Shown one piece after another: positions 21,797 through 62,454 of a stretch of DNA of 64,000 nt. The stretch is from positions 3,584,001-3,648,000 of the forward strand of contig CAVQMM010000001.1 of assembly GCA_963713615.1 (NCBI GenBank), in the 5' to 3' direction. The notes under the pieces were generated by a model, which was not told where the DNA came from, did not search any database, and saw only the letters and a program-made list of their open reading frames with translations. This DNA comes from an uncultured Chlamydiae bacterium (GTDB lineage: Bacteria; Chlamydiota; Chlamydiia; Chlamydiales; JAJFMA01). Each line of letters opens with the position of its first letter. Position 1 is the first letter of the stretch. A program made the position numbers and the translations under genes.

Positions 21797-22547
21797 GAGG
21801 TAATTGCAAAATTATTTGAGCTCTCATGGATCGATTCTTTGGAAAAAAAATCACTTTTTTTTGTGAGAAGGCGATTCTAGAGAGCTTAAGTGGTATGGCA
21901 CTATCCAGTCTGGAAAGACAGGCTTTTCTCCCTTCCCAGGCCCGAAGGGTCGATATTGCAACAGGCCATGGCATCGCCATGGTATATGCCAGGAAGGGAT
22001 TTCGCAGTCTGAAGGACTGCTACAAGACGCCAGTTTACAAACACCATTTATGCATGCGCTTTATGGCAGCCCTACAGGCTGCTAAAACCGTTTTGGCATA
22101 TACCATGGCGATGCCACATAGGCCTCAACCTAACAGGTCTTTTGAGCTTATATCTCAATGACTTAGGACTTCACAATCGTATCTCGGCGCGCAGCGCTTT
22201 GGAGTGCGGTCGCTTGCGACCGCTTTTCGTTCCTTGGGACGGCAATGCTAAAGGCATTGTATGGATTCGTCGAAGGCTGCATGTACTAACTATTTTACCC
22301 TTAGGGAATTATAGTGATGCCGTTGCACACGACCGTCGCAAGGAACCCAAAGCGGTCGCAAGCGACCGCACTCCAAAGCGCTGCGCGCCGAGATACGATT
22401 GTTAGGCTTAGGTTGAGGCCTATGTGGCGATGCCATGGCCTGTTGCAATATCGACCCTTCGGGCCTGGGAAGGGAATGACTCTCTCTTCACCGGCATCCG
22501 ATTTTCAGGAAATTGACTTCGGAGAATCGGACTTCTGCAATTACCTC
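21797..22547. mobile_element. nested composite element copy 1: G > F > H > E
   Basis: Outer TIR GAGGTAATTGCA / TGCAATTACCTC; F palindrome ~21929-22475; H 22117-22424; E 22173-22402. Confidence 0.92.
22117..22424. mobile_element. MITE family H, 308 bp, with 11-bp TSD
   Basis: TIR CATAGGCCTCAACCTAA / TTAGGTTGAGGCCTATG; TGGCGATGCCA duplicated at 22106-22116 and 22425-22435. Confidence 0.95.
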
Positions 22548-22660
22548 ATAAAACATAAAGACCTCAAGCGAAAATAGCCTTGCATTAAAATAAACAGTTG
22601 GCCTATCGAGGGAGCTTACGTCCTAAATGTGCTCTAAACCCTATTTTGTTGGAGAATATC

Positions 22661-22813
22661 ATGAGATTTACGAGCAATATTGGCATGCTCCTACTCTGTA
22701 TTTTTCTTATTTTATATGGCCTAAGCATCCTCATCGCCGGGTTGGCTATTCCCCCAATTGTGATGGGTATTTTGGCAATCGTAGCAGGTATCTTCTTACT
22801 GATTGGGCGTTAG
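22661..22813 (+). CDS. small two-TM membrane protein (50 aa)
   Basis: GGAG RBS plus ATG at 22661; MRFTSNIGMLLLCIFLILYGLSILIAGLAIPPIVMGILAIVAGIFLLIGR. Confidence 0.7.
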   Translation: MRFTSNIGMLLLCIFLILYGLSILIAGLAIPPIVMGILAIVAGIFLLIGR

Positions 22814-22814
22814 A

Positions 22815-23837
22815 CTATCGGGTGGATTGCAGCTCTCCAAGAGCCTCTAAGATTTTGCCATAGCCAGCGCACGCCTGTTCATAGATATAATCGCGTCGAA
22901 GGCGGCGTTGAGCTTTTTTATCGAGGTCTGGATGATCGGAACCGAAGGTCATATCCAGCTCCTCACCAAAGGCAAGGCCAATAGGGGTGTAATGGAAATT
23001 GCGATCTTCCCCGAGTTCTTTCTCCACAACGGGAGGAGGGGGCAATAAGTCGTGGGTGACTAGGCTGAGAGGGTAGAAGTGCGTGGTGGTCTTGGCCTCG
23101 CGAGCCATGAGCACAAAGAGGTCGATGGAATCGTTATCAAAAGGCGCTACATTCACGGTGTGATTAGCATCAGCTCGATCACGCCCCCCGCTAGGCGCTA
23201 TATAGACGCATTGGCCTCCTGCTGCCAGCAAGCGAACCAATTCGTGCATGGCTCGACGGTTGTGTAGCTGCTTAGCGGCTTTGGTGCTGGGATCGTGGTC
23301 CATATGCTTGCGAGAATAGATGCAAAGCATGTTCCTCCCCTTGCTAAAAGGCACCGCTATAGGATCGCTAATCACGCGATGACCAGCCACAAAGACCATC
23401 TCTCGCCCGATAGCTGGATATTCATTTTCCAACATCAGGTTGATGGCTTGTGGATCCGGCTCTGTCTGATGATTGGCGAATAGAATGCAGTTGTGACCCT
23501 GGCGTAACTGCTGATCGATGTTTGCTAGATTGTCCTTGCCTAAGAGTGCAGACTTATCAAAGTCAATCAGAGGACGAATGAGGTCCATTCCAAAGGTGTA
23601 ATAATCGTCTGGACCAGTGACCCTCTCATGGTAAACTTGAAAGGGATAGGGATTGCGAATCTGCTTGATGATGAGTTCTAGAAACTGAAGGGTGATGGCA
23701 GGGGACTGTGTTTGTGGGCTGCCTTTGACGCGCAGGGCCTCAGTGTAACTGTCGTAAAACTGTCGCAGGATCTGTCCCTGGCGCGGAGTGAGGGCTTTCT
23801 CCTGCTCGTAACGTGTGAGTTTGGTGTAAAACTCCAT
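22815..23837 (-). CDS. plsB: glycerol-3-phosphate acyltransferase, plastid/chlamydial type
   Basis: ANHQTEPDP (HX4D), PFSKGRNMLCIYSRKH, APSGGRDR, LLPPP. Confidence 0.93.
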   Translation of the reverse strand: MEFYTKLTRYEQEKALTPRQGQILRQFYDSYTEALRVKGSPQTQSPAITLQFLELIIKQIRNPYPFQVYHERVTGPDDYYTFGMDLIRPLIDFDKSALLGKDNLANIDQQLRQGHNCILFANHQTEPDPQAINLMLENEYPAIGREMVFVAGHRVISDPIAVPFSKGRNMLCIYSRKHMDHDPSTKAAKQLHNRRAMHELVRLLAAGGQCVYIAPSGGRDRADANHTVNVAPFDNDSIDLFVLMAREAKTTTHFYPLSLVTHDLLPPPPVVEKELGEDRNFHYTPIGLAFGEELDMTFGSDHPDLDKKAQRRLRRDYIYEQACAGYGKILEALGELQSTR

Positions 23838-23856
23838 GGCGTCATGCTCTATTGTC

Positions 23857-25395
23857 TTAGGTTTCGATCAGCTTGTGGCTGGTCGTCGAGTAAAAATGAA
23901 ATTCATTGAGATGCAAACGGTCATCTGAACCGAACTCCAGGTGGGCATTCATCCCCTCCGCTAGCTTTCTCAGGAAGGGTTTGTCGATGACGTCTAAATA
24001 TTGGTCAACTTCGGGATGTGTCATGAGCTTGACGGCAAATTGCTGCTGGCAGCGTATGAGTTTGCGCAGGGCGCGTTCGATTTCGATGGAGACGGTTTCG
24101 TGATTTTTGATCAAACCGCTACCTGCACAGTAGGGGCAAGCGGTGAAGACCGTCTGCATCAGGGATCCACGATGGCGCTGACGTGTCATTTCCACTAGGC
24201 CAAACTCGCTCATCCCGAGGATCGTACATTTAGCGCTGTCGTCGCGCATACAATCTTTGATTCGCTCCAGAACGCGGCGTTGGTTACGTCGTAGGCGCAT
24301 GTCGATGAAGTCGCAGATAACCAGGCCGCCAATATTACGCAGACGTAGTTGTCGAGCAATCTCTTCGGCGGCTTCGAGGTTAATATGGACGAGGGACTCC
24401 TCGACGTTGGAATCGCTATTGGAGCTACGGCCAGAGTTAACATCGACGGTGTGCATGGCTTCGGTGCGGTCGAAAAAGAGATATCCTCCGGAGGGCAGCC
24501 AAACTTTACGTTTAAGAGCCTTTTCGATTTCGCGTTCGACATTAAAACGCTCGAACATCGGGGTTTTGTCGCGGTAGAACTCGATGCGCAGAGGGTGCTC
24601 GCTGGCGTATTTGCTATAAAGGTTTTTGACGGTTTGGTAGGTGGGATAGTCGTCAATCAGCAAGCGTTCAAAGCGGCGATCGATAGCCGTCACCACTGCG
24701 CGTTTGATTAGGTCAGACTCTGCATACAGAAGGCCAGAATCGGTCGTTTTGTGGAAGCTATCCATGGTAGACTGCCAGTTTTCCAGCAATTCATGCGCTT
24801 CACTGATGAGCATTTGTGGCGTGGCCAAACGGCTGGCCGTTCGGCAGATCAGGCCCATATCTCGCGGCATTTCGAAGGAGCGAATGAGTTTTTTCAGACG
24901 GTCACGGACAGAGCGATCCTCGATTTTGCGGGAAACACCTCGATGAGGAGAGTTAGGGAGTAGCACGAGGTAACGACCGGCAATGGACACGTTAGAAGTG
25001 AGGCGTGCCCCTTTGGTGCCGATGGGCTCTTTGACAACTTGCACTAATACCGGCTGGTCAATTTTTAAGACTTCGTCAATTTTGAGGTTTTTTTGGTGGC
25101 GCATATCCACTTCGCCGATGTCGTAGTCGAGATCGAAGTCCATATCGAAGATTTGTTCGAACTTACGCGTATTTTCAATGATGTCGGAGATGTGGATAAA
25201 CCCATTCTCGCCCTCATTGATGTCGATGAACGCTGATTGAATATTGTGGAGAATATTGGTGACCCTTCCACGATAGATATTGCCAGCGAGTTGGCGTTCT
25301 TTCTTGCGTTCGATGATCAGGTCATATAGGAGGCCATTGCGTAGGTGCGCGTAGCGGCGTTCCTTAGACTCAATATTGAGTAGAATTTCATCCAT
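23857..25395 (-). CDS. rng: ribonuclease G/E (CafA/CafE)
   Basis: GNIYRGRV, QVVKEPIGTKGARLT, DVNSG, EIARQLRLRNIGGLVICDFIDM, CPYCAG. Confidence 0.96.
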   Translation of the reverse strand: MDEILLNIESKERRYAHLRNGLLYDLIIERKKERQLAGNIYRGRVTNILHNIQSAFIDINEGENGFIHISDIIENTRKFEQIFDMDFDLDYDIGEVDMRHQKNLKIDEVLKIDQPVLVQVVKEPIGTKGARLTSNVSIAGRYLVLLPNSPHRGVSRKIEDRSVRDRLKKLIRSFEMPRDMGLICRTASRLATPQMLISEAHELLENWQSTMDSFHKTTDSGLLYAESDLIKRAVVTAIDRRFERLLIDDYPTYQTVKNLYSKYASEHPLRIEFYRDKTPMFERFNVEREIEKALKRKVWLPSGGYLFFDRTEAMHTVDVNSGRSSNSDSNVEESLVHINLEAAEEIARQLRLRNIGGLVICDFIDMRLRRNQRRVLERIKDCMRDDSAKCTILGMSEFGLVEMTRQRHRGSLMQTVFTACPYCAGSGLIKNHETVSIEIERALRKLIRCQQQFAVKLMTHPEVDQYLDVIDKPFLRKLAEGMNAHLEFGSDDRLHLNEFHFYSTTSHKLIET

Positions 25396-26002
25396 GGCGC
25401 TATCTCGTCGTCGCGACGAAAGGCGGCGCTCACATTGCGGCTGTAGGAGGTATGGGAATGGCTAGGATACTCGCTATGTTGTTTCGTGTCCGGGACGTAC
25501 TGAAAGCCAAATCAGTAAATCGGACACACCTCGCAACCCTATGAGGGAGCTGATGCCGCGATTACCTTTGATCCTTGCTTTCATCAATAAGTCCTGTTGA
25601 TGGCCTAAAAAGAAACCTATCGTCGCCCTGATCTGTGGGCGGAAACACTATAGCTAATTCCTGGTCTCCCAGCAGCAACCCCTCGCCAAGCGAGCCTATT
25701 GCCTTTCTCATTTCTGTTTGTGATGAGAAGTCACCGCGGAGAGTACGTTAATGCGGGCTAGTCAGCCCCTAAACCGTTAGTACTCTGAAAAGGTGCTCCC
25801 CATTCTATCATTATACGTTGGTTGTCATGGTACGCGATCCTATCAATCTTTTCCACTAAAAAAAAATGAAGTAGGCTCACAAGTGAGGAGGAAGAGGAGT
25901 TTTACTTTTCGATGGTGCGTAAAGATCTCGACAAATATGATGAAAGTGTCCTATACTCAAATCTTTGAATTCAAAGTACCATCCGAATCCTAAGGTTTCT
26001 TC

Positions 26003-26512
26003 ATGACTACTGTCGATCCTTCCCTAAAGATTTACGTCGAGCAGCTGCGCGGAGGCAAAACGCAGAGCTTACAAGAGAGCATTGCTCCTAGTTTCCTAGC
26101 CATCGATGAGCCTGAGCTCTCTTTTGTCGATCCGGTCGTTATTGAAGGGGAAGCCTATCTTGCCCACGAGGAACTGGTTGTGCAGGTGAAGGTCTCTACC
26201 AAGGCGCGCATCCCATGTCGTGTGTGCAATGAGTTATTTAAGTACGATATCGTTGTCCCCAAGTTAGTCCATGTGCAGCCGATAGAAGGATTTAAGCGAG
26301 GCTATTTTGACATTAGCGAGATGCTTCGCGAGGCAATTCTTTTGGAAGTTCCGCCAATAGCAGAGTGTCATGGGGGGCATTGTCCATCCCGCGGGGAGTT
26401 GGAAGGTTATTTGCGCCAAACAGTGGCAGAAGACAGTGTGGAAGAAGAAGGCTACCACCCGTTCAAAGACCTAGACTTAGGCGATGTGACGGAAGATTCT
26501 GAGGAAAAGTAA
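26003..26512 (+). CDS. yceD: YceD/DUF177 family protein
   Basis: CRVC and REAILLEVP motifs; directly upstream of rpmF. Confidence 0.85.
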   Translation: MTTVDPSLKIYVEQLRGGKTQSLQESIAPSFLAIDEPELSFVDPVVIEGEAYLAHEELVVQVKVSTKARIPCRVCNELFKYDIVVPKLVHVQPIEGFKRGYFDISEMLREAILLEVPPIAECHGGHCPSRGELEGYLRQTVAEDSVEEEGYHPFKDLDLGDVTEDSEEK

Positions 26513-26581
26513 TGAGTTGCTTTTCTGAAATGCCTTAATAAGCTATTATGTTAATTCAACCTTTTTGGAGATCCATAGAAA

Positions 26582-26764: not shown

Positions 26765-27793
26765 TTGAGCGATAAAGGTTTTCGCGTAGGCGTTGATCTA
26801 ATGGGGAGTGAGAAGACTCCCGAACATTATTTTGATGCTGTAGCAGAAACAACTCGCGAATTTAGTGAACAAGATCGCTTGGTGGCCTTTGGCACACCTG
26901 AGGTGATCGCACGTCTTCAAGATAGTTCAGTTGCTAAAGCCATATGTCTAGATCGATTACACTTTGAAGTTTGTTCAGAAGTCATCGAGATGGACGATGC
27001 GCCTTTAACAGCGATTCGACATAAGAAAAATTCCTCAATGGTTACAGGCATGCGTCAGCTTCGCGATGGCGGATTGGATGCATTTGTCTCCGCCGGGAAT
27101 ACCGGCGCATTAATTGCTAGTGGAGCGATCCTTTTGCCCATGTTGCCCGGTGTAGAGCGTCCTGCGTTGTTGGCGATGCTGCCTACACGTAAAGGCTTTG
27201 TCGCCGTCGTTGATGTCGGTGGTAATGTTTCCTGCAAGCCTGCGCATTTAGTGCAGTTTGCACGCATGGGCGCTGCCTATCTGCGCAGCTATGGCGTCAC
27301 GCGTACTCCCACCGTCGGTTTGTTGAATATTGGTGAGGAGTCGCAAAAAGGGACTCCTGAGGCACGCCAGGCTTATGAGATGCTGCAGGAGGCTTGCTCT
27401 GGTAATGATCTGGAGCAGGCCGGCATGACCTTTTTGGGAAATATCGAAGGCCGAGAAGTCTTTCAGGGAAAGGTGGATGTTTTAGTGACCGATGGGTTTA
27501 CGGGCAATATCTTTCTAAAGGCTTCTGAGGGGGTATCATTTTTTATCTTAGACTATCTTCAGGATGCTTTTGCAGAGGATCCTGATCCCCGCTTGGATAA
27601 TGTCATAAAGACCTTGCAGAGTATTGTCGACTACGATGAGTATCCAGGGGCTATCGTTAGCGGTGTCGACCGCATTCTTATCAAATGTCATGGAAGCTCT
27701 TCTTCGCGCGCGATGCGTAAAGGGTTAATGGGTGCTCGGCAGTTGCTGCAGGGTGGGTGGTTGTCGTCTATGCGGCAGCTATTAGGAGGATAG
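26765..27793 (+). CDS. plsX: phosphate acyltransferase PlsX
   Basis: VDLMGSE, VSAGNTGAL, LLNIGEESQKG, VTDGFTGNIFLK, KCHG. Confidence 0.96.
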   Translation: MSDKGFRVGVDLMGSEKTPEHYFDAVAETTREFSEQDRLVAFGTPEVIARLQDSSVAKAICLDRLHFEVCSEVIEMDDAPLTAIRHKKNSSMVTGMRQLRDGGLDAFVSAGNTGALIASGAILLPMLPGVERPALLAMLPTRKGFVAVVDVGGNVSCKPAHLVQFARMGAAYLRSYGVTRTPTVGLLNIGEESQKGTPEARQAYEMLQEACSGNDLEQAGMTFLGNIEGREVFQGKVDVLVTDGFTGNIFLKASEGVSFFILDYLQDAFAEDPDPRLDNVIKTLQSIVDYDEYPGAIVSGVDRILIKCHGSSSSRAMRKGLMGARQLLQGGWLSSMRQLLGG

Positions 27794-28147
27794 GATGGCA
27801 AATGTGACGGTTTGTTTGGCTTTTAGGAGTAACACGGATGCACACGAATCTAGGAGGACTAGGAAAGGAAATACCGTTCCTCAATCTGAAACAATAAAAT
27901 TGGTTTTTAAGATAGCATGAACACAATCTATGTTGCTTCTAAAAGGCTGAACGAACCGTGTTTGCCATCCGATCCTCCTAAATCCTCCTAGATCCGTGTG
28001 CATCCGTGTTACTCCTAAAAAGCTGAACGAACCGTCACATTTGCCATCCGATCCTCCTAAATCCTCCTAGATCCGTGTGCATCCGTGTTACTCCTAAAAA
28101 GCTGAACGAACCGTCACATTTGCCATCCTACTCCTTCTAAATTCTCA
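27791..28147. repeat. family D copy 2 (right arm tandemly duplicated, 79-bp unit)
   Basis: TTGCCATCC recurs at 27962, 28041 and 28120; lies between convergent genes. Confidence 0.95.
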
Positions 28148-33032: not shown

Positions 33033-33329
33033 AGGAGGAGGGGGAGAGGAATAGGAGTTAGGATTTTTTACCGCCGAGACACAGAGACGCCGAGATAGGA
33101 GAGAGAGGATTAGGAGAGAATGTGCCTTTTGTGGGGCTTTGGGCAAAATTCTGCCTAAGGACCTCTTGAGAGGTTATCGTTTTAGTAAAAGCCCTTAGAC
33201 TGGATTTTGTCCAGAGCCAGCAGTAACTGAACATTCTTTCCTCTCTCTCCTAACTCGGCGTCTCGGCGCTCTCTGTGGTAAAAATCCTAATCCTTCCTCC
33301 TCCTCCTTCCTTCCCTCATTCCTTCTCTC
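33033..33329. repeat. family B palindrome with a distinct palindromic spacer
   Basis: TTTTTACCGCCGAGACACAGAGACGCCGAGATAGG ... CTCGGCGTCTCGGCGCTCTCTGTGGTAAAAATCC; purine-rich then pyrimidine-rich flanks. Confidence 0.88.
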
Positions 33330-33385
33330 GCTCCTATATACTCGATATGCTAGGCTCAGGATTAATCAGTCACAGAGGAGTGAAG

Positions 33386-35206: not shown

Positions 35207-35458
35207 ATGGGAGAGAAGGAAAAGAGAGAGAAGGGAGGGAAAAGGAGGGAGAAGGATTTTTACCACAGAGGACACAGAGGACACAGAGACGCCGAGATAG
35301 GAGAGAGAGGATTAGGAAAGAGGGTTAGGGGGAGAAAAATTGGAATTTGCACAAAAAACAAAAAAGTTCCCTCCTCTCTCTCCCATCTCTGCGTCTCTGT
35401 GTCCTCTGTGGTAAAAATTCCTAAATCCTCCCTCCTCTCCTTCCCGTCTCCCCCCCTC
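35207..35458. repeat. family B palindrome
   Basis: TTTTTACCACAGAGGACACAGAGGACACAGAGACGCCGAGATAGG ... CTCTGCGTCTCTGTGTCCTCTGTGGTAAAAA. Confidence 0.9.
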
Positions 35459-35523
35459 TACCTTGATGTTTATTGGCGGTAAGGGTATACGATTATCACT
35501 TTTTCGTGAGGAGGGCATATCGG

Positions 35524-36914: not shown

Positions 36915-38741
36915 ATGTGCGGCATTTTTGGTTATGTGGGAGGGCAAGAAGCCGTTGGAATAACTCTGGCGGGTCTCAAAAGGCTAGAATACCGCGGCTA
37001 CGACTCAGCTGGCATAGCGGGTTTTAACAATGGCGATCTGGTTCATTGTAAAGTTGTGGGAAAGATCGCTGCTCTAGAGCAGGAGGTCAAAAAGCAGGGG
37101 CTTAAGCTGTCTACCGCTATTGCCCAAACGCGTTGGGCAACGCATGGCAAACCTAATGAAGTCAATGCGCATCCGCATTTCGATCACTCTGGCTCCCTAG
37201 CCTTGGTACACAATGGGATCATCGAAAATCACGATAGTTTACGCAAGATGCTGGAAGCAAAAGGCTGCGTGTTTAAATCTGACACCGATACTGAAGTAGC
37301 AGCCCAACTTATCGGCCACCTCTATCAGGGTGATCTTCTCAGCGCCGTTCAGCAAGCCCTTCCTCTCCTTCATGGTGCTTATGCCCTTGTGATGATTCAT
37401 AAGAATCACCCAAAGCAGATTTTAGCCGTTGCTTCGGAAGCTCCCCTGTCCGTGGGGATAAGTCCCAGTGAGGCCTATGTTTCTTCTGATGTGATGGCTC
37501 TCAAGTCCATGGCTAAAGAGGTTTTTCACCTCGCAAATAGTGAAATAGCTGTTATTCATGCAGATCAGGTAGAAACCTTTGATGCCTCGAAGTCTAAGAT
37601 TATCAAAAATCGTGAGGCCCTGACGCAAACGGCTGAGGAAATCTCTAAAGGGGATTTCGCGCACTTTACTCTCAAAGAGATTTTTGAACAGCCAAAGTCA
37701 TTGCAGGCCGCTATTGCTTCTCGCTATTCAGAGGAGTATGGTACAGCCATTCTTGACGGTCTAAACATGGGCGTCCATGAACTCCTTAGCGTTGAACGTA
37801 TCCTCATCCTAGCCTGCGGGACATCATGGCATGCTGGCGTGATTGGTGCCTATATGCTCGAAGACTTGGCCCGAATTCCAGTGCAGACAGAAATATCGTC
37901 CGAATATCGCTATAAGAATCCCATCGTATTACCAGGCACTTATGTGATCGCCATGAGCCAGTCCGGAGAGACGGCTGACACCATCGCTGCAGTCCGTGAG
38001 TTGAAGGCCAAAGGAGCTAAGATCCTAGCTGTTTGTAACGTGCAGGGGTCAACGCTGACTCGAGAAGCAGATGGATGCCTCTACCTGCGTGCAGGGCCTG
38101 AAATAGGTGTTTGTTCGACGAAGGCTTTTACCAGCCAGGTAGCCGTGCTCTTCCTGTTTACATTGCTAATGGCACGTATTCGTCATGTGGGCAAGGCAGA
38201 GGGGCAAGCTCTGATTAAGGCTTTACAGCTGCTTCCCGATCAAGTTCAGCAGGTTCTTGAGGAAGCCAACCATATCGAAGAAATAGCCAAAAAATACGCT
38301 AAGTACGACAACTTCTTCTTCCTGGGCCGTCGACATATGTACCCTGCAGCTCTTGAAGGTGCTTTGAAGCTCAAGGAAATCTCCTATATCAATGCCAATG
38401 GCTACCCAGCCGGTGAAATGAAGCATGGTCCTATCGCTCTGATCAATGAACAATGCCCCACAGTAGCATTGTGTGCTAATAAGGCGACCTACACCAAGCT
38501 TCTCAGTAACCTCATGGAGGTTAAAGCCCGCAGTGGCCCCGTTCTGGCTATCGTGCCACAGGGGGCTGAAGGTCTGGATAGTATCGCTGATGATACAATT
38601 TGGGTGCCAGATACCATCGATGAGCTTGCTACGGTACCGACCTCTGTGGCTCTGCAGCTCTTTGCCTATTTCGTTGCCAGGGAACGCGGCTGCGATATCG
38701 ACCAACCGCGTAACCTCGCTAAGTCCGTCACCGTCGAATAG
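36915..38741 (+). CDS. glmS: glutamine--fructose-6-phosphate aminotransferase
   Basis: MCGIFGY, LEYRGYDSAG, SQSGETADT, DQPRNLAKSVTVE. Confidence 0.99.
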   Translation: MCGIFGYVGGQEAVGITLAGLKRLEYRGYDSAGIAGFNNGDLVHCKVVGKIAALEQEVKKQGLKLSTAIAQTRWATHGKPNEVNAHPHFDHSGSLALVHNGIIENHDSLRKMLEAKGCVFKSDTDTEVAAQLIGHLYQGDLLSAVQQALPLLHGAYALVMIHKNHPKQILAVASEAPLSVGISPSEAYVSSDVMALKSMAKEVFHLANSEIAVIHADQVETFDASKSKIIKNREALTQTAEEISKGDFAHFTLKEIFEQPKSLQAAIASRYSEEYGTAILDGLNMGVHELLSVERILILACGTSWHAGVIGAYMLEDLARIPVQTEISSEYRYKNPIVLPGTYVIAMSQSGETADTIAAVRELKAKGAKILAVCNVQGSTLTREADGCLYLRAGPEIGVCSTKAFTSQVAVLFLFTLLMARIRHVGKAEGQALIKALQLLPDQVQQVLEEANHIEEIAKKYAKYDNFFFLGRRHMYPAALEGALKLKEISYINANGYPAGEMKHGPIALINEQCPTVALCANKATYTKLLSNLMEVKARSGPVLAIVPQGAEGLDSIADDTIWVPDTIDELATVPTSVALQLFAYFVARERGCDIDQPRNLAKSVTVE

Positions 38742-39110
38742 GATTTAGGATGGCAGATACGGTTCGTTTAGCTTTTTAGGAGCAACACGGATGCACACGG
38801 ATCTAGGAGGATTTAGGAGGATTGGATGGCAAAACACGGTTCGTTTAGCTTTTTAGGAGTAACACGGATGCACACGGATCTAGGAGGATTTAGGAGGATT
38901 GGATGGCAAATACCGTTCATCAATCTGAACCAATAAAATTGGTTTTTAAGATCGCATGAACACAACCCATGTTGCTTCTAAAAGGTTGAACGAACCGTAT
39001 CTGCCATCCAATCCTCCTAAATCCTCCTAGATCCGTGTGCATCCGTGTTACTCCTAAAAAGCTAAACGAACCGTGTTTTGCCATCCTTTGCCATCCTATC
39101 CTTCCCTAAA
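38742..39110. repeat. family D copy 3 (left arm tandemly duplicated)
   Basis: GGATGGC recurs at 38748, 38824 and 38901; inverted right arm. Confidence 0.95.
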
Positions 39111-41502: not shown

Positions 41503-41662
41503 GGCCTTGTTCGGCTTTCCGGGCAGAATTTCGGTCAGGCGAGAGGTCCCAGATGCAGCAGTCGACGACGAGGGAATAGCGCTAGCTATTGCCGAGGAGG
41601 CGAATGCTGCAGATGGGCGCCTCGCAGCCGACCGAAAACTGCGCGAAAAGTCGAACAAGGCC
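41503..41662. mobile_element. MITE family A, diverged subfamily A2, 160 bp, with 8-bp TSD
   Basis: GGCCTTGTTC...GAACAAGGCC; AAAAAACT duplicated at 41495-41502 and 41663-41670. Confidence 0.92.
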
Positions 41663-42031: not shown

Positions 42032-42131
42032 ATAACCCCCTTTGTGGGGACATTACGAGTAGGAGGAGAAAATATATTATTCCCTCTGTATTATATTATA
42101 TTAGTTAAATATTTTAATGAATAGATTAACG

Positions 42132-42291
42132 GGCCTTATTCACCTTTGCGGTCAGTTTTCGGTCGACTGCAAAAGGATCGTCTGTCGCGTTTTGCTCCTC
42201 GGACATAGCTGGCGCTATGCCCTCGTCACAAACCACGACATCCGACCTTTTTCGTCCGACCGAAATTCTGACCGTAAAGGTGAACAAGGCC
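42132..42291. mobile_element. MITE family A, 160 bp, with 8-bp TSD
   Basis: Same sequence as 544-703; GATTAACG duplicated at 42124-42131 and 42292-42299. Confidence 0.95.
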
Positions 42292-45517: not shown

Positions 45518-46656
45518 GTTTCGGCGGGCGGATCCCTATACGCATTCACCCTCTCTTTTGGCTGATGGCTGGGGCGATAGGGGTTCTATACAGTGGCGAT
45601 GGCGACATCAACCACATCTTGATTTGGATCGTCGTCATCTTCATCTCTGTCTTAGTACATGAGTTTGGTCACGCTTTGACAGGTCTAGCTTTTGGACAAT
45701 CTGTTTCCATTGATCTAATCGCTTTAGGAGGGCTGACACAAAGGCAGGGGCCTCCTCTCTCACTATTTAAGGAATTTTTGATCGTTTTGAATGGCCCCAT
45801 GGCGGGTTTCTGTCTGTTTATTGTCTGTTATGCTCTTTTTTCGATCTATCATGACCCCACTTCATTGATGACTTATGCTCTTGGCGCTGCTGTCAATGTA
45901 AATTTCTTTTGGACGCTTGTAAACCTGCTTCCTATTCAGCCTCTGGATGGCGGTAAGTTGTTGGTTATTTTTATGGAAGCGTTATTCGGGCTAAGGGGTG
46001 TGAAGATTGGCTATTTTATAGGAGTCCTGCTGGCGTCGGCCTTAGGACTATTCTATTTTGCGATTGGAGCTATGCTTCCCGGCGCTATCTTGCTGATGTT
46101 AGCTTTTGAAAGTTATCGAACGTGGCAAGGATCACTTGTAATGACGGACAAGGATCGGGATAGCCACCTGCTGGACTTATTGAAATCTGCTGAAAATCTC
46201 CTGACTATGGGTAAGATCGATCAGGCTGAACACCTGTTAAAACAAATCCGTTCCGAGGTAAAGGCGGGATTTCTATTTCTTGCCACCACTCAGCTGTTGG
46301 GACAGATAGCTGCTAAGAAGGGAGACTTTCATCAAGCTTATCTACTGCTACTATCAATAGAGAAGCATTTGAGCGATGACGATCTGGTGCTCTTGCATCA
46401 GTTGGCTTTTAGCAATCGTCAATGGAAACACGCGATTGCTGTTGGAGACAGGGTGCATCAGGGGCTTCCATCGTATGATACGGCTCTTTTGAATGCCCTC
46501 TCCCATGCGGTATTGGGCGAAGTTGAACCAGCGATTGGATGGCTTCGCTGTGCTATTGAGGAAGGGCTTCCTAATGTTAAGCGGGTGGTTATGCAAACCG
46601 AATTTGATCCTATCCGTGATAATCCTGACTTTAAGCACTTCGTAGCCACGTTGTAA
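45514..46656 (+). CDS. site-2 (M50) membrane metalloprotease with C-terminal TPR region
   Basis: HEFGH and [14 protein letters not shown]-like C-terminus. Confidence 0.9.
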
Positions 46657-46992
46657 GAGGTAGGATGGTAGATACGGTTCGTTCAGCTTTTTAGGAGTAA
46701 CACGGATGCACACGGATCTAGGAGGATTTAGGAGGATTGGATGGCAGATGCGGTTCGTTCGGCTTTTTAGGAGTAACACGGATGCACGCTGAATCTTTTA
46801 CAGAACCTCTTAAAAACCAATTTTATTGTTTTAGATTGACGAACGGTATTTGCTTTCCTAATCTTCCTAGATCCGTGTGCATCCGTGTTACTCCTAAAAA
46901 GCTGAACGAACCGCATCTGCCATCCAATCCTCCTAAATCCTCCTAGATCCGTGTGCATCCGTGTTACTCCTAAAAAGCCGAACGAACCGTAG
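46657..46992. repeat. family D copy 4
   Basis: Duplicated arms on both sides; lies between convergent genes. Confidence 0.95.
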
Positions 46993-46995
46993 CTG

Positions 46996-48519
46996 CTAGT
47001 GAATTTGGCTCAGTGCTTCCTCATTTAGCTTATACAGCTCCGCATAGCTAACAGCATTGCCATCGAGGAGCTTGTTCCAGTCGGCGTTACCATTGCGGTC
47101 TATCTCAGTATGCATCGTCAAGGGTCCAGTGGGCAAGTTTACATCGGCGCGTACAGTGTTAGGCATTAGATTGACCGAACCCTCGTCCACGACGTTGTAA
47201 AGCAGACATTTTTGACCTACCAGTTCGTCGCATGTACAGCTAATCGCTACACTATCGGCGATATCAACAGTATTGGCGGTCACACCAACCAGCAGGCTGT
47301 TGCGAATGATGCCTTTTTTGATGTGGCATCCGATAAGCACTGAGCTCTCGTCGACATCAAGCTCATCTTTAGCTAATTTTCGGTTATCGCTGCTGAAGAA
47401 AGTTCGAATGGCAATTCCTTCAGCATCTTTTTTAGTGAGCTTCAAGCAGTTATCGTAATAGGCCCTGAGGGTACCAAAATCCCACCAATAGCTATCCTGC
47501 CCTACATCGATAACCCCTAGAAATGGCGTTGTGCTATCACCTGCGATGCGCTTTCTCAGATTTTGCATGCGCAGATGATGACTTTGAGCGCCTGCCTTGG
47601 GTGTGCCTTTGGATACCATGACTCGGACATAGGTCTCTTCATCCAACGTTAGAGGCATCCACCAATGGGGATCGCTATCAAGCTTTCCCTTCTTGGCGGT
47701 AAGCTCAGGAGAAAATTCAGCCAATAGGCCTTCCAACAACTCAAGAGACAAGCTAAAGCTGCCTAAGCTCGTACCAAAGTTGTCTGTCGCCTTGACGATA
47801 TTGTCGCTGATCAGTCTTTGGAGTGTGTCATAATCCACTTTTTCTAGCTGCTTAGCGTCGCCATCGGACGAGATAGCCAGTAAGCCATAGCGACTAAGGC
47901 CTTTGGCATCCCAGACCTCTCGCGAGGGTAATGGAATAACACAGGCTAAGATGTCCGCATGGGTATGGGCTGTAGTCGGCTGTTTGGAGGGGATAAAGAT
48001 CTGATCACCCCAGAAGACCGATAGGCGGCCCTTACGTTTTTCGCCGAATAGGGCGGTCTGTCGTATAACAGCCTCTAGGATAGTGAGAAAATCCGAGGAG
48101 TCCGCATCAACTTTGAGGTTAGGGAGTTTGACCGCAGACTTATTATTACGTTCACTACCGGGAAGCGGCGCTAGGCGCGTGCCTTGACCGGCTGTATGGT
48201 ACATAGCTACAGAGGCCCCTTGGCGTTGTAGCTCGAGCAGGTCCATGTTATACAGTTGCTGTCCCTTGATAACAGCCTTTTGAAAGGCATAGAGAGTTCC
48301 AAGGGCATTCCCAGCACCACCAGGCCAGTCCTCTTGGATGACGATGACCTTAGTATCTACCGGTAGGCTATACCCGGCTGATTGGGCAAGCTTTTGCTGC
48401 CAATAGGCCTCTTGCTGACCATTGTTAGTCACGACAATAACAATGTCCATCCCTTCATCAGGCGGTGAGGCAAGGCTCATCGCTTTCACATGGTGTAGTA
48501 GCGTTTCCTCTGCGTTCAC
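46996..48519 (-). CDS. sugar-1-phosphate nucleotidyltransferase-like protein (GlgC/fucose pyrophosphorylase-like)
   Basis: AGQGTRLAPL...NNKSAV, FWGDQ and WWDFGT motifs; beta-helix-like C-terminus. Confidence 0.6.
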   Translation of the reverse strand: MNAEETLLHHVKAMSLASPPDEGMDIVIVVTNNGQQEAYWQQKLAQSAGYSLPVDTKVIVIQEDWPGGAGNALGTLYAFQKAVIKGQQLYNMDLLELQRQGASVAMYHTAGQGTRLAPLPGSERNNKSAVKLPNLKVDADSSDFLTILEAVIRQTALFGEKRKGRLSVFWGDQIFIPSKQPTTAHTHADILACVIPLPSREVWDAKGLSRYGLLAISSDGDAKQLEKVDYDTLQRLISDNIVKATDNFGTSLGSFSLSLELLEGLLAEFSPELTAKKGKLDSDPHWWMPLTLDEETYVRVMVSKGTPKAGAQSHHLRMQNLRKRIAGDSTTPFLGVIDVGQDSYWWDFGTLRAYYDNCLKLTKKDAEGIAIRTFFSSDNRKLAKDELDVDESSVLIGCHIKKGIIRNSLLVGVTANTVDIADSVAISCTCDELVGQKCLLYNVVDEGSVNLMPNTVRADVNLPTGPLTMHTEIDRNGNADWNKLLDGNAVSYAELYKLNEEALSQIH

Positions 48520-51558: not shown

Positions 51559-52176
51559 GAGGGAATTGCAGAAGTCCGATTTTCCGAAGTCAATTTCCTG
51601 AAAATCGGATCCCGGTGAAGAGAGAGCCATTCCCTTCCCAGGCCCGAAGGGTCGATATTGCAACAGGCCATGGCATCGCCACATAGGCCTCAACCTAAGC
51701 CTAACAATCGTATCTCGGCGCGCAGCGCTTTGGAGTGCGGTCGCTTGCGACCGCTTTGGGTTCCTTGCGACGGTCGTGTGCAACGGCATCACTATAATTC
51801 CCTAAGGGTAAAATAGTTAGTACATGCAGCCTTCGACGAATCCATACAATGCCGTTTAGCATTGCCGTCCCAAGGAACGAAAAGCGGTCGCAAGCGACCG
51901 CACTCCAAAGCGCTGCGCGCCGAGATACGATTGTGAAGTCCTAAGTCATTGAGATATAAGCTCAAAAGACCTGTTAGGTTGAGGCCTATGTGGCATCGCC
52001 ATGGTATATGCCAGGAAGGGATTTCGCAGCCTGTAGGGCTGCCATAAGGCGCTTGTATAAATAGCGTGTGAATACTGACGTCTTATGGCAGTCCTTCAGA
52101 CTGCGAACCACGTTTTGGCATATACCATGGCGATGCCATGGCCTGTTGCAATATCGACCCTTCGGGCCTGGAAAGG
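51559..52176. mobile_element. nested composite element copy 3 (one G end + F > H > E)
   Basis: GAGGGAATTGCAGAAGTCCG end; H at 51682-51990 with TGGCATCGCCA duplicated at 51671-51681 and 51991-52001. Confidence 0.9.
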
Positions 52177-52191
52177 AAAATCCTACTCTTC

Positions 52192-58588: not shown

Positions 58589-58659
58589 AAAAACGTTCGC
58601 CTTCACATAATGTTGTGAAGCTATGATAAGCAATTAGTCTATTTACCTGAAGGAGATTA

Positions 58660-58950
58660 TGGGAGAGGAGAGGAGAGGAGAGGAGGGGAAGGAGGAGGAT
58701 TTTTTACCACAGAGAACACAGAGACGCCGAGACAGGAAGAGAGAGGATTAGGAAAGAAGAGAAAAAAATGTCCATTCGGTCCAATTCGTCCAATCAGTCC
58801 AATTCGTCCATAAAGTCCATTTTAGCATAGGTGAAAATGGACTATAGTGGACAATATGGACCTCATGGACAATTTTTAAACATCAACAAAAAATCCTCTT
58901 CTTCTTTCCTATCTTCTTTCTCCCTCTCTCCGCCTTCCTCTCTTCTCCCC
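58660..58950. repeat. family B left arm with nested family C core; right arm degenerate
   Basis: TTTTTACCACAGAGAACACAGAGACGCCGAG; same GTCCATTTTAGCATAGGTGAAAATGGAC core as at ~5000. Confidence 0.85.
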
Positions 58951-59006
58951 TTGACGGATAAGCCCGTCTCAAACACAATTGAGGGAATAAATTAAACGAG
59001 CTTGCG

Positions 59007-59861
59007 ATGGTTAAAGTTCCTCTATTACCTAATCTCATCACCGCTTTTGGCTTGAGTTGTGGTCTATTCGTTATTTTTCGGGTATCGATGATGATGCCAG
59101 GAGTGGCCACCTACAGCGAATTTCAGGCGGTGGTATTGATCCTGTTATTGGCGGCTTTTGCTGATGTTTTGGATGGCGCTGTGGCCCGTGCTCTTAACGT
59201 TCAGAGCCATTTTGGTGGGATTTTTGACTCCCTAGCCGATGCCATCAGCTTTGGAGTAGCGCCCTCAGTGTTTATTTTGAAGAGCCTTTCTATACCAGCT
59301 AGCACGGAACTTTCGTATCTCATTACCACAGCCGCCATGGTCTTTACGGTGTGCGGGGTGCTTAGGTTAGTCCGTTTTTCTGTTGCGGCATGGGATGAGT
59401 CAATCCTCGCGACTGAACTTGAGAGTAGTAAGAAAAAGAACTTTATCGGCTTGCCCATTCCCGCCGCTGCTGCTGCTGCTGTTTCTGCCAATCTGTTTTT
59501 GATTTCCCCAGATTTCCGACACATCTTGATCATTACTAGCGAAGCTAGGGCCTTTGTGATGTTTGTTATTCTAGTTCTATTGGGGTACTTAATGGTCAGC
59601 CGTTGGCGCTTTCCTGCCTTTAAGGCACTACGCATTCGCGTCTCTTCCTTTCAGATCGTCTTCCCTACTGCCATGGCGACGGTGTTTTTATTCTATGGCG
59701 TATTATTCCATTTCGCTACAGCATTGATGGTTCTATCTTGGGCCTATGTAGTGGTATCTTTTGGCTTGTCTCTGCTTCGATATTTGATGGGGTCCAAGGC
59801 CGAAACGTTGGCGGAATTTGAGCCCGAACCTGAAGTCGATGACTTTGAAGACGAAGAGTAA
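59007..59861 (+). CDS. pssA: CDP-diacylglycerol--serine O-phosphatidyltransferase
   Basis: PNLIT, DVLDGAVARAL...DSLADAISFGVAP, LRLVRF, GLPIP. Confidence 0.92.
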   Translation: MVKVPLLPNLITAFGLSCGLFVIFRVSMMMPGVATYSEFQAVVLILLLAAFADVLDGAVARALNVQSHFGGIFDSLADAISFGVAPSVFILKSLSIPASTELSYLITTAAMVFTVCGVLRLVRFSVAAWDESILATELESSKKKNFIGLPIPAAAAAAVSANLFLISPDFRHILIITSEARAFVMFVILVLLGYLMVSRWRFPAFKALRIRVSSFQIVFPTAMATVFLFYGVLFHFATALMVLSWAYVVVSFGLSLLRYLMGSKAETLAEFEPEPEVDDFEDEE

Positions 59862-59865
59862 AGTT

Positions 59866-60486
59866 TTACTCGTATAGCCGAAGGATAGCGATGACGATAC
59901 CCTGAATCATTACCTTATCGGGTTGTAGCAATAGAGGGGAAGGATCCGGGCTGGAGCTTCTAAGGCGAATATGTTGGCCTTCAGGATAATAGCGCTTGAC
60001 TACTGTATTTCTTTTGTTGATTAAGGCTACCACCATATCCCCAGGGGCCGCTTCAGTGGTTGCTGATACAATGACAAGGTCACCGTCGCATATGTGCTCG
60101 GAGGATAGCCCTTCTCCACGTACACGTAGGACATAGGTAGTCTCTGCATCTGGCACCATTAGTGCCGGCAAAGAGATCGATTGAGGCTTTGGAAAGGTTT
60201 CTATAGGTCCATCAGACGAAAGATATCCGATCAGCGGCACATCCATTTTACTTGGATCTACCGGCTGCTTTGAAGGTGCTGTCAAGCATAGAGAGCGGCT
60301 ACAGTAAGTCTCTGACGTGATCATGCCTTTTCGTTTGAGAACCTTTAAGTGTTTGTAGACGGATCCCAGAGAGGAAAAACCGAAGCGTACCATGATATCC
60401 TGATAGCTTGGAGAGTAGGTGTGGCTATGGATAAATTCATCGATAAAATCGACAATCTCACGTTGGCGCTTTGTCAGACCTATCAT
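59866..60486 (-). CDS. lexA: LexA family repressor (predicted non-cleavable)
   Basis: N-terminal wHTH LTKRQREIVDFI...SPSY..I; S24-like C-terminal domain with degenerate catalytic motifs. Confidence 0.85.
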   Translation of the reverse strand: MIGLTKRQREIVDFIDEFIHSHTYSPSYQDIMVRFGFSSLGSVYKHLKVLKRKGMITSETYCSRSLCLTAPSKQPVDPSKMDVPLIGYLSSDGPIETFPKPQSISLPALMVPDAETTYVLRVRGEGLSSEHICDGDLVIVSATTEAAPGDMVVALINKRNTVVKRYYPEGQHIRLRSSSPDPSPLLLQPDKVMIQGIVIAILRLYE

Positions 60487-60492
60487 AGTTCC

Positions 60493-61176
60493 CTACGTCG
60501 CATATGGCGATGAAGAAAGTGCACGCCCATAGGTTACACGGCAGGCTAGCAGGGCTATCCACCACATCAATACTGCACTAACAATGGTGTCGCTAAGGAA
60601 ATGACCTCCCTGTGCGATACGGGTTTCAGCAAGCATGACTCCAAGGGCAATGGCAACGATCATGCTAAGCCAAAAAAGTAGTGGCTTGCGCTCTCTTTTT
60701 GCCACTAAAGCAACGACGAATAGGAAGAATCCCATACTAGCGTGACCGCTGGGAAAGGACTTGTAGCCATATCCACGATTGGAAAATTCCGGTTGGTAGA
60801 AGGGAAGGTAGTCTGCTGGACCGCCGAATTCTTTGATTTGCACTGGACGAGGGCGTCCCCAAAATTCTTTGAAAGCTCCATTGACTAGCAAGCCGGGGCC
60901 AATAACGAAGGCTAATGCAATAGCACCAGCCGGTAAGCGCCAGCGTTGCCAACGTGTGGAGACAAAGGTCATCAGCCAAACAAGAACAGCAAGACCGCCG
61001 ACGGCCAACCCTGGGAGCTCTCCCCTGTCATACAGGAATTGATTGAACGGAGTTGGGTTAAAATGGCCGTCATGAAAATAGTGTCCTGACGCTGCAAGAT
61101 CCCATCCCGAGGAATAGGGTATAAATAAAACCAACGCCAAAAGGGGCAGAAGCCAAGACAATTGTCGGCTCGCCAT
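60493..61176 (-). CDS. PAP2 family membrane phosphatase
   Basis: KEFWGRPRP, FPSGHA, TRIAQGGHF. Confidence 0.9.
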   Translation of the reverse strand: MASRQLSWLLPLLALVLFIPYSSGWDLAASGHYFHDGHFNPTPFNQFLYDRGELPGLAVGGLAVLVWLMTFVSTRWQRWRLPAGAIALAFVIGPGLLVNGAFKEFWGRPRPVQIKEFGGPADYLPFYQPEFSNRGYGYKSFPSGHASMGFFLFVVALVAKRERKPLLFWLSMIVAIALGVMLAETRIAQGGHFLSDTIVSAVLMWWIALLACRVTYGRALSSSPYAT

Positions 61177-61702
61177 GCAGACCTCCATCTACGCAAGTTG
61201 TACGGATTTTTGCATTGTAGCCAAGTGGTCGCTTGCACCCAACACTTTTCTTCTTTGGCCGGGTATTTTGTCAGAGATGATGTAGCAATCGCGAGTTTGA
61301 TGTCCTTTAGCCTTTAGATGCGCTTGGCCGTCTTGTAGAAGGGATTAGATATAATCCATTCCGGTTCCTCGGGCAAAAAATTTGGTTCCTTGTCTACAGA
61401 CGCTCTTTTTCTTGAAGTTGCATCATCGTAGTAGATCCCTGCAGCAGGATAGTCAATGAATGTGATTTGATTTTTCAGGAACCAATCACGTATTAAATCT
61501 CTTGTTTTTTGATTATTTATTGCTTTTTGCGGAGAGGTTGGTTGCTTCGCTGAGTTGACCTATGCCTCCCGTAGCGTTACTAAAAAGCCTCTCACTGACA
61601 TTCTACACGGGTACCCTAGCATCTGTGTGGATTTAAGAAACAATTGAGTCTGGTGGCTTTAGAGGATTTGCGTATCCAAAAAATGTGCAAAGTCCAGTAT
61701 AT

Positions 61703-62454
61703 GAGGTAATTGCAGAAGTCCGATTTTCCGAAGTCAATTTCCTGAAAATCGGATGCCGGTGAAGAGAGAGCCATTCCCTTCCCAGGCCCGAAGGGTCGAT
61801 ATTGCAACAGGCCATGGCATCGCCATGGTATATGCCAGGAAGGGATTTCGCAGCCTGTAGGGCTGCCATAAGGCGCTTGTATAAATAGCGTGTGAATACT
61901 GACGTCTTATGGCAGTCCTTCAGACTGCGAACCACGTTTTGGCATATACCATGGCGATGCCACATAGGCCTCAACCTAAGCCTAACAATCGTATCTCGGC
62001 GCGCAGCGCTTTGGAGTGCGGTCGCTTGCGACCGCTTTGGGTTCCTTGCGACGGTCGTGTGCAACGGCATTACTATAATTCCCTAAGGGTAAAATAGTTA
62101 GTACATGCAGCCTTCGACGAATCCATACAATGCCGTTTAGCATTGCCGTCCCAAGGAACGAAAAGCGGTCGCAAGCGACCGCACTCCAAAGCGCTGCGCG
62201 CCGAGATACGATTGTGAAGTCCTAAGTCATTGAGATATAAGCTCAAAAGACCTGTTAGGTTGAGGCCTATGTGGCGATGCCATGGCCTGTTGCAATATCG
62301 ACCCTTCGGGCCTGGAAAGGGATAAAAGCCTGTCTCTCCAGACTAGATAAGGCCATGCCATTTGAGCTTTCCAGAATCGCCTTCTCGCAAAAAAAGGTAA
62401 CCTTTTTTCCTAAGAATCGATCCTTAAGGGCTCAAATAATTTTGCAATTACCTC
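61703..62454. mobile_element. nested composite element copy 2 (inverted relative to copy 1): G > F > H > E
   Basis: TIRs GAGGTAATTGCA / TGCAATTACCTC; H at 61963-62271 with TGGCGATGCCA duplicated at 61952-61962 and 62272-62282. Confidence 0.92.

Follow-up and report, generated by a model that had tools for sequence, protein, structure and literature searches.

A gene-less element with IS231-type ends at the hairpin centre of a REP-like repeat in a chlamydial genome

Introduction

Insertion sequences of the IS231 subgroup have the end signature CAT-7-AA-2-TAA and direct repeats of 10-12 bp (PMC2266710 Table 1). Many pairs of their transposases are above 50% identity, and most come from the Bacillus cereus group (PMC2266710). 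IS231A uses a symmetric GGG-N5-CCC motif and makes an 11-bp duplication (PMC2577343 Table 1). The system of the element described here, H, is like the IS231 subgroup (IS231A/B/F, IS1151) in its end signature, 10-12-bp duplication, YREK motif and symmetric 11-bp core of the GGG-N5-CCC type, and H is also like the MIC231 cassettes, which are trans-mobilised non-autonomous derivatives (PMC6199540). It differs from them in that protein identity is only about 29% (metagenome element L097), the host is chlamydial, not of the Bacillus cereus group, and H carries a REP-like doublet, not genes. The near-exclusive use of one repeat, as seen for H, was not met for IS231 in the literature examined.

The closest parallel for the target is ISRm22 (IS4 family, IS4Sa subgroup) from Sinorhizobium meliloti 1021, all copies of which lie in REPs at the palindrome axis, with a minority having hybrid direct repeats that were ascribed to recombination (PMC1525189). 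H is similar in both respects. However, ISRm22 is autonomous, has 9-10 copies and a 6-bp repeat and belongs to another subgroup (PMC1525189), whereas H is non-autonomous, with 85 copies and an 11-bp duplication. ISPpu9/MITEPpu9 is also like H in having a REP or BIME as landing site and a MITE-like companion, and IS621, IS1397 and ISPsy8 are other REP-targeting elements among IS110 and IS3 (PMC12288879; PMC3184786). Their chemistry differs from that of H: according to PMC12288879, IS110 targeting is RNA-guided, in contrast to H with its terminal inverted repeats and 11-bp duplication.

The repeats F (the target of H) and R (inside H) resemble REP/REPIN-RAYT systems, since each is a palindromic doublet present in many copies and found on the flanks of a Y1 HUH transposase gene. 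They are unlike them in that elements with ends of the transposon type also carry the doublets as cargo (F in element G, R in H and in MITE J), and in that the enzyme beside F scores as IS200/IS605-like and below the RAYT cut-off.

The initial annotation suggested a natural site-specific insertion system of a sort not known from chlamydiae. A literature search, with most subscription papers and ISfinder outside its reach, gave no matching title or abstract for a chlamydial description or for an IS231-type MITE in REPs. The system is thus new for chlamydiae in the literature searched, but it is not new in kind, since both REP targeting by an IS4-family element (ISRm22, PMC1525189) and IS231-type non-autonomous elements were already known.

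Results and Discussion

Element H and its target in the window

The window is a stretch of 64,000 bp from an uncultured Chlamydiae bacterium (contig CAVQMM010000001.1, positions 3,584,001 to 3,648,000), and its features are listed in Table 1. H is a gene-less element of 309 bp with 17-bp terminal inverted repeats and IS231-type ends. The window contains six exact matches to the 17-bp end (mean 0.16 in shuffled sequence), which form three inverted pairs, in agreement with the earlier description of three copies of 308-309 bp with shared ends. The end sequence, CATAGGCCTCAACCTAA, fits the signature CAT-------AA--TAA in Table 1 of PMC2266710, and was also set against the ends of IS231A and IS1151 from their sequence records, as expected from the annotated likeness to CAT-ended IS231-group elements with 10-12-bp duplications. 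Each copy is bordered by the direct repeat TGGCGATGCCA or its reverse complement, which confirms the exact 11-bp duplication reported for all three. H has the general features of a MITE, being short, with terminal inverted repeats, target duplication, no transposase gene and many copies.

Table 1. Positions of H, its target duplications, and the repeats F, G and R in the window
Feature	Position	Strand	Remarks
H copy 1	22117..22424	-	308 bp; orientation opposite to H2 and H3; terminal inverted repeats of 17 bp
H copy 2	51682..51990	+	309 bp
H copy 3	61963..62271	+	309 bp
H1 left 11-bp target duplication	22106..22116	+	right copy 22425-22435
H2 left 11-bp target duplication	51671..51681	+	right copy 51991-52001
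H3 left 11-bp target duplication	61952..61962	+	right copy 62272-62282
Outer MITE-like element G, ends GAGGTAATTGCA	21797..22547		contains F doublet and H1
Outer element G	61703..62454		contains F doublet and H3
Outer element G, one end only, right limit approximate	51559..52179		contains F doublet and H2
Hairpin core of the H-free F arm, composite 1	21969..21979
Hairpin core of the H-free F arm, composite 2	52128..52138
Hairpin core of the H-free F arm, composite 3	61815..61825
Empty F hairpin core	13129..13139		free-standing F arm, type found beside HUH transposase gene
Empty F hairpin core, GGGC variant GGGCGATGCCC	12970..12980
R doublet (REP-like inverted pair) inside H1	22173..22402		elsewhere in the genome receives IS66, IS1634, MITE J
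R doublet inside H2	51704..51934
R doublet inside H3	61985..62215
Free-standing R-type doublet without H ends	20408..20685

All three composites have an empty core in the other F arm, which bears out the proposal that F carries the insertion site on both arms. The free-standing empty site noted previously is also there, together with a second, variant one. The F spacers of composites 2 and 3 (51991-52138 and 61815-61962) show 100% identity, and H occupies opposite arms in the two. The spacer of the copy at 21797 is only 79% identical, and no more than a single substitution and a single gap separate the three H copies, both as the annotation had it. The target core is variable, with T or G at the first position and further variants in the loop. 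F is predicted to form a stem-loop; folding z-scores of three F arms were mixed (-5.2, -2.3 and -0.1), with the central stem formed in all three.

F is a REP-like repeat, being a palindromic multi-copy doublet (285 cores) flanking a Y1 HUH transposase gene, and R, the inner palindrome of H, likewise flanks such a gene. Six F hairpins lie within 1.2 kb after the HUH gene at C1:3243412, whose product scores 22.4 bits with NF047646 (cut-off 80) and 57.6 with NF033573 (cut-off 55). R has three arms on each side of the RAYT gene at C1:3256780 (NF047646 83.9 bits, cut-off 80). The transposase of G was not found, either with PF05598 in five genomes rich in G-like ends or among ORFs beside G ends (17 loci).

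Genome-wide distribution of H

The whole assembly contains 85 paired H copies, of which 84 have at least one F flank and 71 an exact 11-bp duplication of the F hairpin core, within the 10-12 bp of the IS231 subgroup. The duplicated sequence follows the local site and occurs as eight different strings. A tabulation of flanks had been suggested as a check, and the possibility that most H copies lie in unrelated targets is refuted by it. The association is close to, but not exactly, the 100% at the same REP position of a type 1 REP-targeting insertion sequence (Tobes and Pareja). The only copy outside F (C1:1654684) is diverged.

Sites of the form (T/G)GGC-N3-GCC(A/C) are occupied in 81 of 285 cases (28%) within F, compared with 0 of 265 outside F, most of which fall within long ORFs. 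Outside both F and long ORFs, none of 24 strict cores is occupied (Fisher p=0.001), and one of 315 sites with a looser core; this non-coding class is defined by a crude ORF proxy and may include regulatory DNA. Non-coding perfect hairpins with the core outside F number three, too few to separate shape from sequence.

Several observations count against the explanation preferred below. A matching duplication is missing in 12 of the 85 copies, seven of them with inverted (hybrid) flanks, and one copy (C1:433207) lies between duplicates of a site whose stem is mismatched. H is also unevenly distributed: one of 21 tandemly arrayed G copies is occupied, against 40 of 55 solitary ones, and H is absent from all of the roughly 16 F arms of the HUH-gene type.

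Search for the cognate transposase

Searches of this assembly (99.1% complete, three contigs) with PF01609, NF033592 and profile A2, and by tblastn (best E 0.86), did not reveal the cognate transposase. H-ended elements of 2.2-4.9 kb were considered as autonomous partners and rejected, as they are H copies that carry IS66 or IS1634. Of the 31 PF01609 matches in the assembly, none has H ends for its own termini. A 451-residue IS4 protein in genome G003 (L030) lies near a related end and was also discarded, having other termini and a long separate branch.

In metagenomes, 35 loci carry the exact H end, and six of these are complete elements of 1507-1669 bp. Three of the six were scanned with the IS4 model NF033592 and all three passed. 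The six elements agree with the IS231 subgroup in a single-ORF DDE transposase and a length within 1450-5400 bp, and its motif Y(2)R(3)E(6)K is seen in L097 and L196. One of the six, L097, lies in an F-like hairpin and is flanked by an exact duplication of 11 bp, GGGCAACGCCC. The chlamydial genome G365 contains a transposase of this type as well as a MITE of 222 bp with the same ends, and genome G001, from the same genus as the present one, has decayed fragments of the cognate transposase. The check for an autonomous IS4 element with the ends of H was therefore negative for this assembly and positive for six metagenome contigs and G365.

The transposases with H-type ends form one clade (support 100) with the YREK motif, and D127, D198 and E334 are invariant in A2. 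The best named matches of the L097 protein are IS231A/B/C/E/F and IS1151, with 29% identity to IS231A/B. In a quick tree with long-branch warnings and four outgroup rows, L097-type transposases share a 40-row group with IS231A/F and IS1151 (SH-aLRT 97) but form a separate subclade within it. By its sequence, the candidate cognate transposase is IS231-like, outside IS231 in the narrow sense.

Five sites elsewhere with the same type of end have 10-11-bp duplications. Sister IS4 elements with other ends (L011, L059, L062) have a non-palindromic repeat as target, which also counts against the preferred explanation.

Probable independent insertion and alternative explanations

H has IS231-type anatomy and target duplication, is strongly biased in its sites and has spread recently, and elsewhere IS4 elements of about 1.5 kb occur with an identical end and similar sites. 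We consider it highly probable that H was inserted many separate times at the centre of the F hairpin by an IS4-family (IS231-like) transposase acting in trans. The separate insertions are suggested by the low divergence of H relative to its hosts and by the presence of H in both arms, both orientations and at several site variants. The mean difference is 0.5% among 74 H cores and 8.3% among 41 occupied G hosts, an approximately 16-fold lower diversity for H. Both orientations occur among H haplotypes with 2-5 copies, and when the H state is mapped on a tree of 76 G copies, 35 changes are required (mean of shuffled data 38). The repeated insertion put forward in the initial annotation is thereby upheld, and the comparison of genealogies that it recommended gave no congruence pointing to a single insertion. 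Its further proposal, mobilisation in trans, is supported as regards the IS231-type ends, the non-autonomy and the IS4 link; the trans action itself is deduced from other genomes because the cognate transposase was not found in this one.

Cut-and-paste is a general property of this transposase family. A transposase dimer would bind two H ends, excise H and join it to a symmetric (T/G)GG-N5-CC(A/C) core by cuts 11 bp apart. Flanking bases or the palindrome would add selectivity, such that nearly all the sites used are supplied by F, which is a REP-like repeat next to the resident HUH transposase gene and is multiplied inside the outer element G. The transposase gene was probably lost after the burst, or is in unassembled DNA. 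Hybrid-flanked copies would be a likely product of recombination between H copies in the two F arms.

Alternatively, a few early insertions of H into G could have been followed by multiplication of whole G[F[H]] composites by G's own transposase. G is MITE-like, with a 4-bp duplication at 45 of 120 G pairs; 66 of the 85 H copies lie inside paired G ends, the occupancy of solitary G is high, and the majority of G copies belong to a young clade without resolution (45 of 69 branches open), given which some composites may have moved as units. This is nevertheless distinctly improbable, and largely refuted, as the main cause, and may explain a minority of copies: it does not fit the diversity gap between H and G, three identical G copies carry H in both orientations, there are seven orientation-by-site classes, and individual H states require 12 changes in 12 rows, 6 in 6 and again 6 in 6, with starred branches alone forcing 3-6 each. 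H could also have spread without a transposase, if gene conversion through flanking homology copied it from filled F arms into empty ones. The missing enzyme agrees with this, as do the hybrid flanks, which show that these repeats recombine, and the somewhat lower diversity of occupied arms than of empty ones. Such conversion is highly improbable given that rare site variants at four loci appear in both duplicate copies, that 68 occupied arms have 39 different 91-bp contexts, and that H haplotype is not linked to orientation (p=0.37, two main haplotypes).

It is very unlikely that the transposase reads only a loose core like the GGG-N5-CCC of IS231A, which also gives 11-bp duplications (PMC2577343 Table 1), and that purifying selection elsewhere produced the concentration in F. 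The many non-F cores within long ORFs and the one diverged H outside F agree with this, but non-coding cores outside F, as judged by the crude ORF proxy, are almost never used, and ISAs1 and another IS1634 persist at unrelated sites in the same genome. Finally, the resident RAYT might move H as an enlarged REPIN by way of R, whose arms flank a RAYT gene here, the RAYT being present and the IS4 transposase not. This is almost certainly wrong: H is bounded by IS4 ends, not R arms, these ends also delimit complete IS4 elements as well as MITEs whose interiors are unrelated, and the 11-bp duplication fits the IS231 group.

With its 85 insertions, some 200 sites still empty and a range of site variants, H offers a large natural data set, to which named candidate enzymes can be added. 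It serves the question of whether a single-protein DDE transposase becomes nearly site-specific by sequence, hairpin shape or both. Should this specificity be borne out experimentally, a small transposase with an effective target of 17-20 bp might prove useful for integration.

Other elements in F and R

IS66 and IS1634 elements generally show little target specificity. In this genome, 17 of 18 IS66 copies and all six copies of one IS1634, that of 545 aa, land in R, as does MITE J, and nine of nine IS110 copies are in the outer hairpin of F. REP-like repeats are thus shared landing sites for several transposase chemistries, and REP doublets are copied as cargo by elements with transposon-type ends. 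Each jump of H would add landing sites for IS66, IS1634 and MITE J, because H carries the R doublet.

A wider model is tentative, and as a whole rather doubtful: a stack of landing pads, in which G brings F, H lands in F bringing R, and IS66, IS1634, IS110 and MITE J land in F or R, with six unrelated mobile families confined to HUH-transposase palindromes and the H-clade DDE transposase selecting palindrome shape around a short G-rich core. Shape selection is suggested by sites in other genomes, which differ in stem sequence and stay symmetric. Outside the duplication, 22 IS231-like sites have mean symmetries of 2.4-3.0 out of 6 pairs, where chance would give about 1.5. The groups do not differ clearly and 10-bp duplications bring an off-centre bias; no proof is drawn from this count.

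In 4 of the 20 listed soil and peat runs, Logan contigs contain H, F, and IS66 and IS110 junctions, with almost none of the unique flanks, no listed joint and no empty orthologous locus. As controls, ISAs1 and another IS1634, read from their flanks, lie in the repeats in 0 of 7 and 2 of 9 cases, respectively.

Copies of H and their target

The initial annotation had described three copies of H, a non-coding element of about 309 bp, in the window, and all three are present with 17-bp inverted ends and 11-bp flanking repeats (see the table). Matches to the H end are expected by chance at 0.16 per shuffled window. The window corresponds to C1:3584001-3648000 of the host genome, and the host is treated as chlamydial: the named relatives of one window enzyme belong mostly to Chlamydiales or Parachlamydiaceae, with one labeled Nitrosomonas, and an OmcB model from chlamydiae is matched weakly, under its cut-off. 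Pairing of ends at ≤1 mismatch across the host genome (G000) gave 85 elements. The 11-bp direct repeat is exact in 71/85, has one mismatch in 2/85 and is absent in 12/85, and a flank of the REP-like hairpin repeat F is found on at least one side of 84/85, the exception being a diverged 305-bp copy. The possibility that most copies lie in unrelated targets is therefore not borne out. The duplications track the local site sequence (55 of the TGGCGATGCCA type and 12 of the GGGCGATGCCC type), and four single site variants are each found on both sides of their H copy. It is well supported that H is an IS231-like MITE, and that its recent burst into a REP-like hairpin is real and mechanistically coherent.

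Most of the interior of H consists of R, a REP-like inverted doublet, and 164 of 474 R arms are within H. Both repeats have a neighboring Y1 HUH transposase gene: one is followed by six F hairpins, while the other has three R arms on either side. The enzyme beside R passes the RAYT model, and that beside F scores as IS200/IS605-like only. A third such gene is flanked by its own large palindromic repeat family.

Positions of repeats, mobile elements and transposase genes
Feature	Sequence	Position	Remark
H	window	22117-22424, 51682-51990, 61963-62271	
Empty F hairpin core	window	13129-13139	
G	window	21797-22547, 61703-62454	about 120 pairs in G000
Y1 HUH gene beside F	G000	C1:3243412	
Y1 HUH gene beside R	G000	C1:3256780	
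Third Y1 HUH gene	G000	C1:3873041	
IS110	G000	C1:2107681	and 8 more
IS66 (example)	G000	C1:598788-601399	L001
545-aa IS1634 in R	G000	C1:2364590, 2331419, 2941954, 3305530, 2389786, 1120015	
MITE J	G000	C1:2840976-2841259, 3191161-3191437	and others
Inverted-repeat families D1, D2, D5, D11, D12, D14	window	9000-9250, 27790-28120, 38740-39090, 46650-47000; 4870-5200, 33080-33330, 35250-35460; 542-703, 41503-41662, 42130-42291	

Independence of the insertions

The cores of 74/85 H copies could be aligned (64 plain, and 10 after nested IS66 was taken out). Their mean difference is 0.5%, and 52 of them fall into two haplotypes separated by a single base. Of the 85 H, 66 lie within G, a repeat of 432 bp that is bounded by inverted ends of its own. 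A filter on length and orientation kept 76/120 paired G, and the 41 occupied G show a divergence of 8.3%. This comparison of H with its host repeat agrees with the repeated independent insertions proposed earlier, with the H state scattered on a G tree that is weak (45/69 branches open): 35 changes are required, compared to 38.0 with shuffled labels (12/200 shuffles as low), and the slight clustering is due mostly to empty G copies. With three H states, the number of changes needed equals the number of rows. Since the tree is weak, some composites of G with H may have moved as whole units. Three identical G copies hold H in both orientations, and H haplotypes of only 2-5 copies are likewise found either way round. 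The 68 cleanly occupied arms show 39 distinct contexts of 91 bp and, when sorted by orientation and site, fall into seven classes.

The picture is complicated by the occupancy of G, which is 1/21 in tandem arrays versus 40/55 for solitary copies, and by the F arms of the type adjacent to the HUH gene (about 16, including that at 13129), which are all empty. Both arms are filled in 1/40 occupied solitary G, compared to about 6 expected from arm frequencies. Seven H copies have inverted flanks (outer-outer or inner-inner), and where both G ends are present the G span is shortened or lengthened. We infer that these seven arose through recombination of elements with H in both arms.

Choice of target site

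In G000, H is held by 81/285 (T/G)GGC-N3-GCC(A/C) sites in F and by 0/265 outside F. Outside ORFs, non-F sites hold H at 0/24 strict cores (p=0.001) and 1/315 looser (T/G)GG-N5-CC(A/C) sites, this class being a crude proxy for non-coding DNA (outside ORFs of at least 100 codons). Judged from the flanking sequence in G000, 0/7 copies of ISAs1 and 2/9 copies of a 519-aa IS1634 are in repeats, and therefore insertions elsewhere can persist.

A possible contributor is hairpin shape, which could guide the choice of target by the enzyme acting on H. Stems of at least 7 bp in F are occupied at 78/253 sites, compared to 3/32 for shorter stems, a class that takes in hybrids and old copies. Shape would also fit the five duplicated sites for an H-type end outside G000 (L097, L102, L119, L215, L217), which by eye are the centers of 6-8-bp stems that vary outside the G-rich core. 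However, the site duplicated at one H copy has a mismatch in its stem, the repeat targeted by sister elements is not palindromic, and the core is the same as the GGG-N5-CCC motif given for IS231A in Table 1 of PMC2577343, all of which argue for sequence; hairpin repeats are also simply abundant neutral sites. Our favored reading is that a dimer would recognize a symmetric sequence, with a preference extending over about 17 bp, and that shape may contribute.

The transposase

Complete IS4-type elements with the ends of H, of the kind that had been anticipated, were found in metagenome contigs, and a transposase lies behind the same end in genome G365, but the host itself yielded none: searches of G000 with PF01609, NF033592, tblastn (16 related proteins) and a profile found no IS231-like transposase. 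Long H-ended elements were rejected as autonomous partners, being H with IS66 or the 545-aa IS1634 inside; IS66 occurs there with an 8-bp duplication, at two positions and in both orientations.

The exact H end occurs at 35 metagenomic loci. At six of them the element is complete (1507-1669 bp) and contains a single long ORF. These six are 50-83% identical to one another, and the three that were scanned all exceed the cut-off of the IS4 model. An exact duplication, GGGCAACGCCC, flanks L097 inside a hairpin of F architecture; the flanks of L092 are F-like and non-identical, those of L116 are inverted, and L093 is H itself carrying IS66, in F. The exact end was found in three of the 401 genomes from the phylum (G000, G224 and G365), and G365 also has a 222-bp MITE with these ends. 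G001, from the genus of the host, has decayed transposase fragments (40-48% identity) and a near-identical right end.

Protein was obtained at 44/51 chosen loci for a tree. The seven transposases with the end of H, including that of G365, form one clade (SH-aLRT 100) amid chlamydial sisters with related ends, and group with IS231A, IS231F and IS1151 in a quick tree that gave long-branch warnings. Among named elements, the L097 transposase matches those of IS231 and IS1151 best, with about 29-31% identity.

MITEs with an H-related end are abundant across several chlamydial families (G003, G023, G026, G012, G055, G058), with differing interiors and targets, and matching IS4 elements occur in G003, G012, G029 and G152. 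IS231-like elements of Bacteroidota are also found at palindrome centers, with 10-11-bp duplications (L133, L141, L151, L154, L164, L174, L184).

Relation to known systems

The REP-targeting behavior of H has precedent. As in H, insertion of the IS4-family element ISRm22 is at the REP axis, in every copy, with some hybrid repeats (accessible text of PMC1525189). The accessible parts of other papers define IS231 ends and repeat length (PMC2266710), describe trans-mobilization of MIC231 (PMC6199540) and MITEPpu9 accompanying a REP-targeting IS110 (PMC12288879), and list REP-targeting IS and palindrome-nested repeats (PMC3184786, PMC3733652). No title or abstract found matched such a combination in chlamydiae, or an IS231-type MITE in REPs. 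What sets this variant apart is its scale, the cognate clade identified for it and its several layers of nesting, which make it a good test system.

Other elements in F and R, and further repeats

An IS110 (398 aa, 1765 bp) occupies one position of the outer hairpin of F in 9/9 copies. IS66 (2295 bp, 8-bp duplication) is in the R palindrome in 17/18 G000 copies, 13 of them inside H, in both orientations; such strong targeting is unusual for IS66. All 6 full-length copies of the 545-aa IS1634 occupy a single position in the R arm. The 519-aa IS1634 (9 copies) is scattered, unlike the 545-aa element. MITE J, a sister MITE of about 280 bp with IS231-type ends related to those of H, lands in R arms with a 10-bp duplication where intact. 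It carries an R-type doublet, and so can nest in its own kind.

G is itself MITE-like, set in a GTCC/GGAC-type repeat and also found in tandem arrays, with a 4-bp duplication in 45/120 pairs and a common flanking motif in 85/120. A transposase for G was not found with PF05598 in five genomes rich in G-like ends or among ORFs beside G ends (17 loci). Related ends occur in G002, G030, G006 and G023. Elsewhere in G000, a D11-type inverted repeat is nested inside G.
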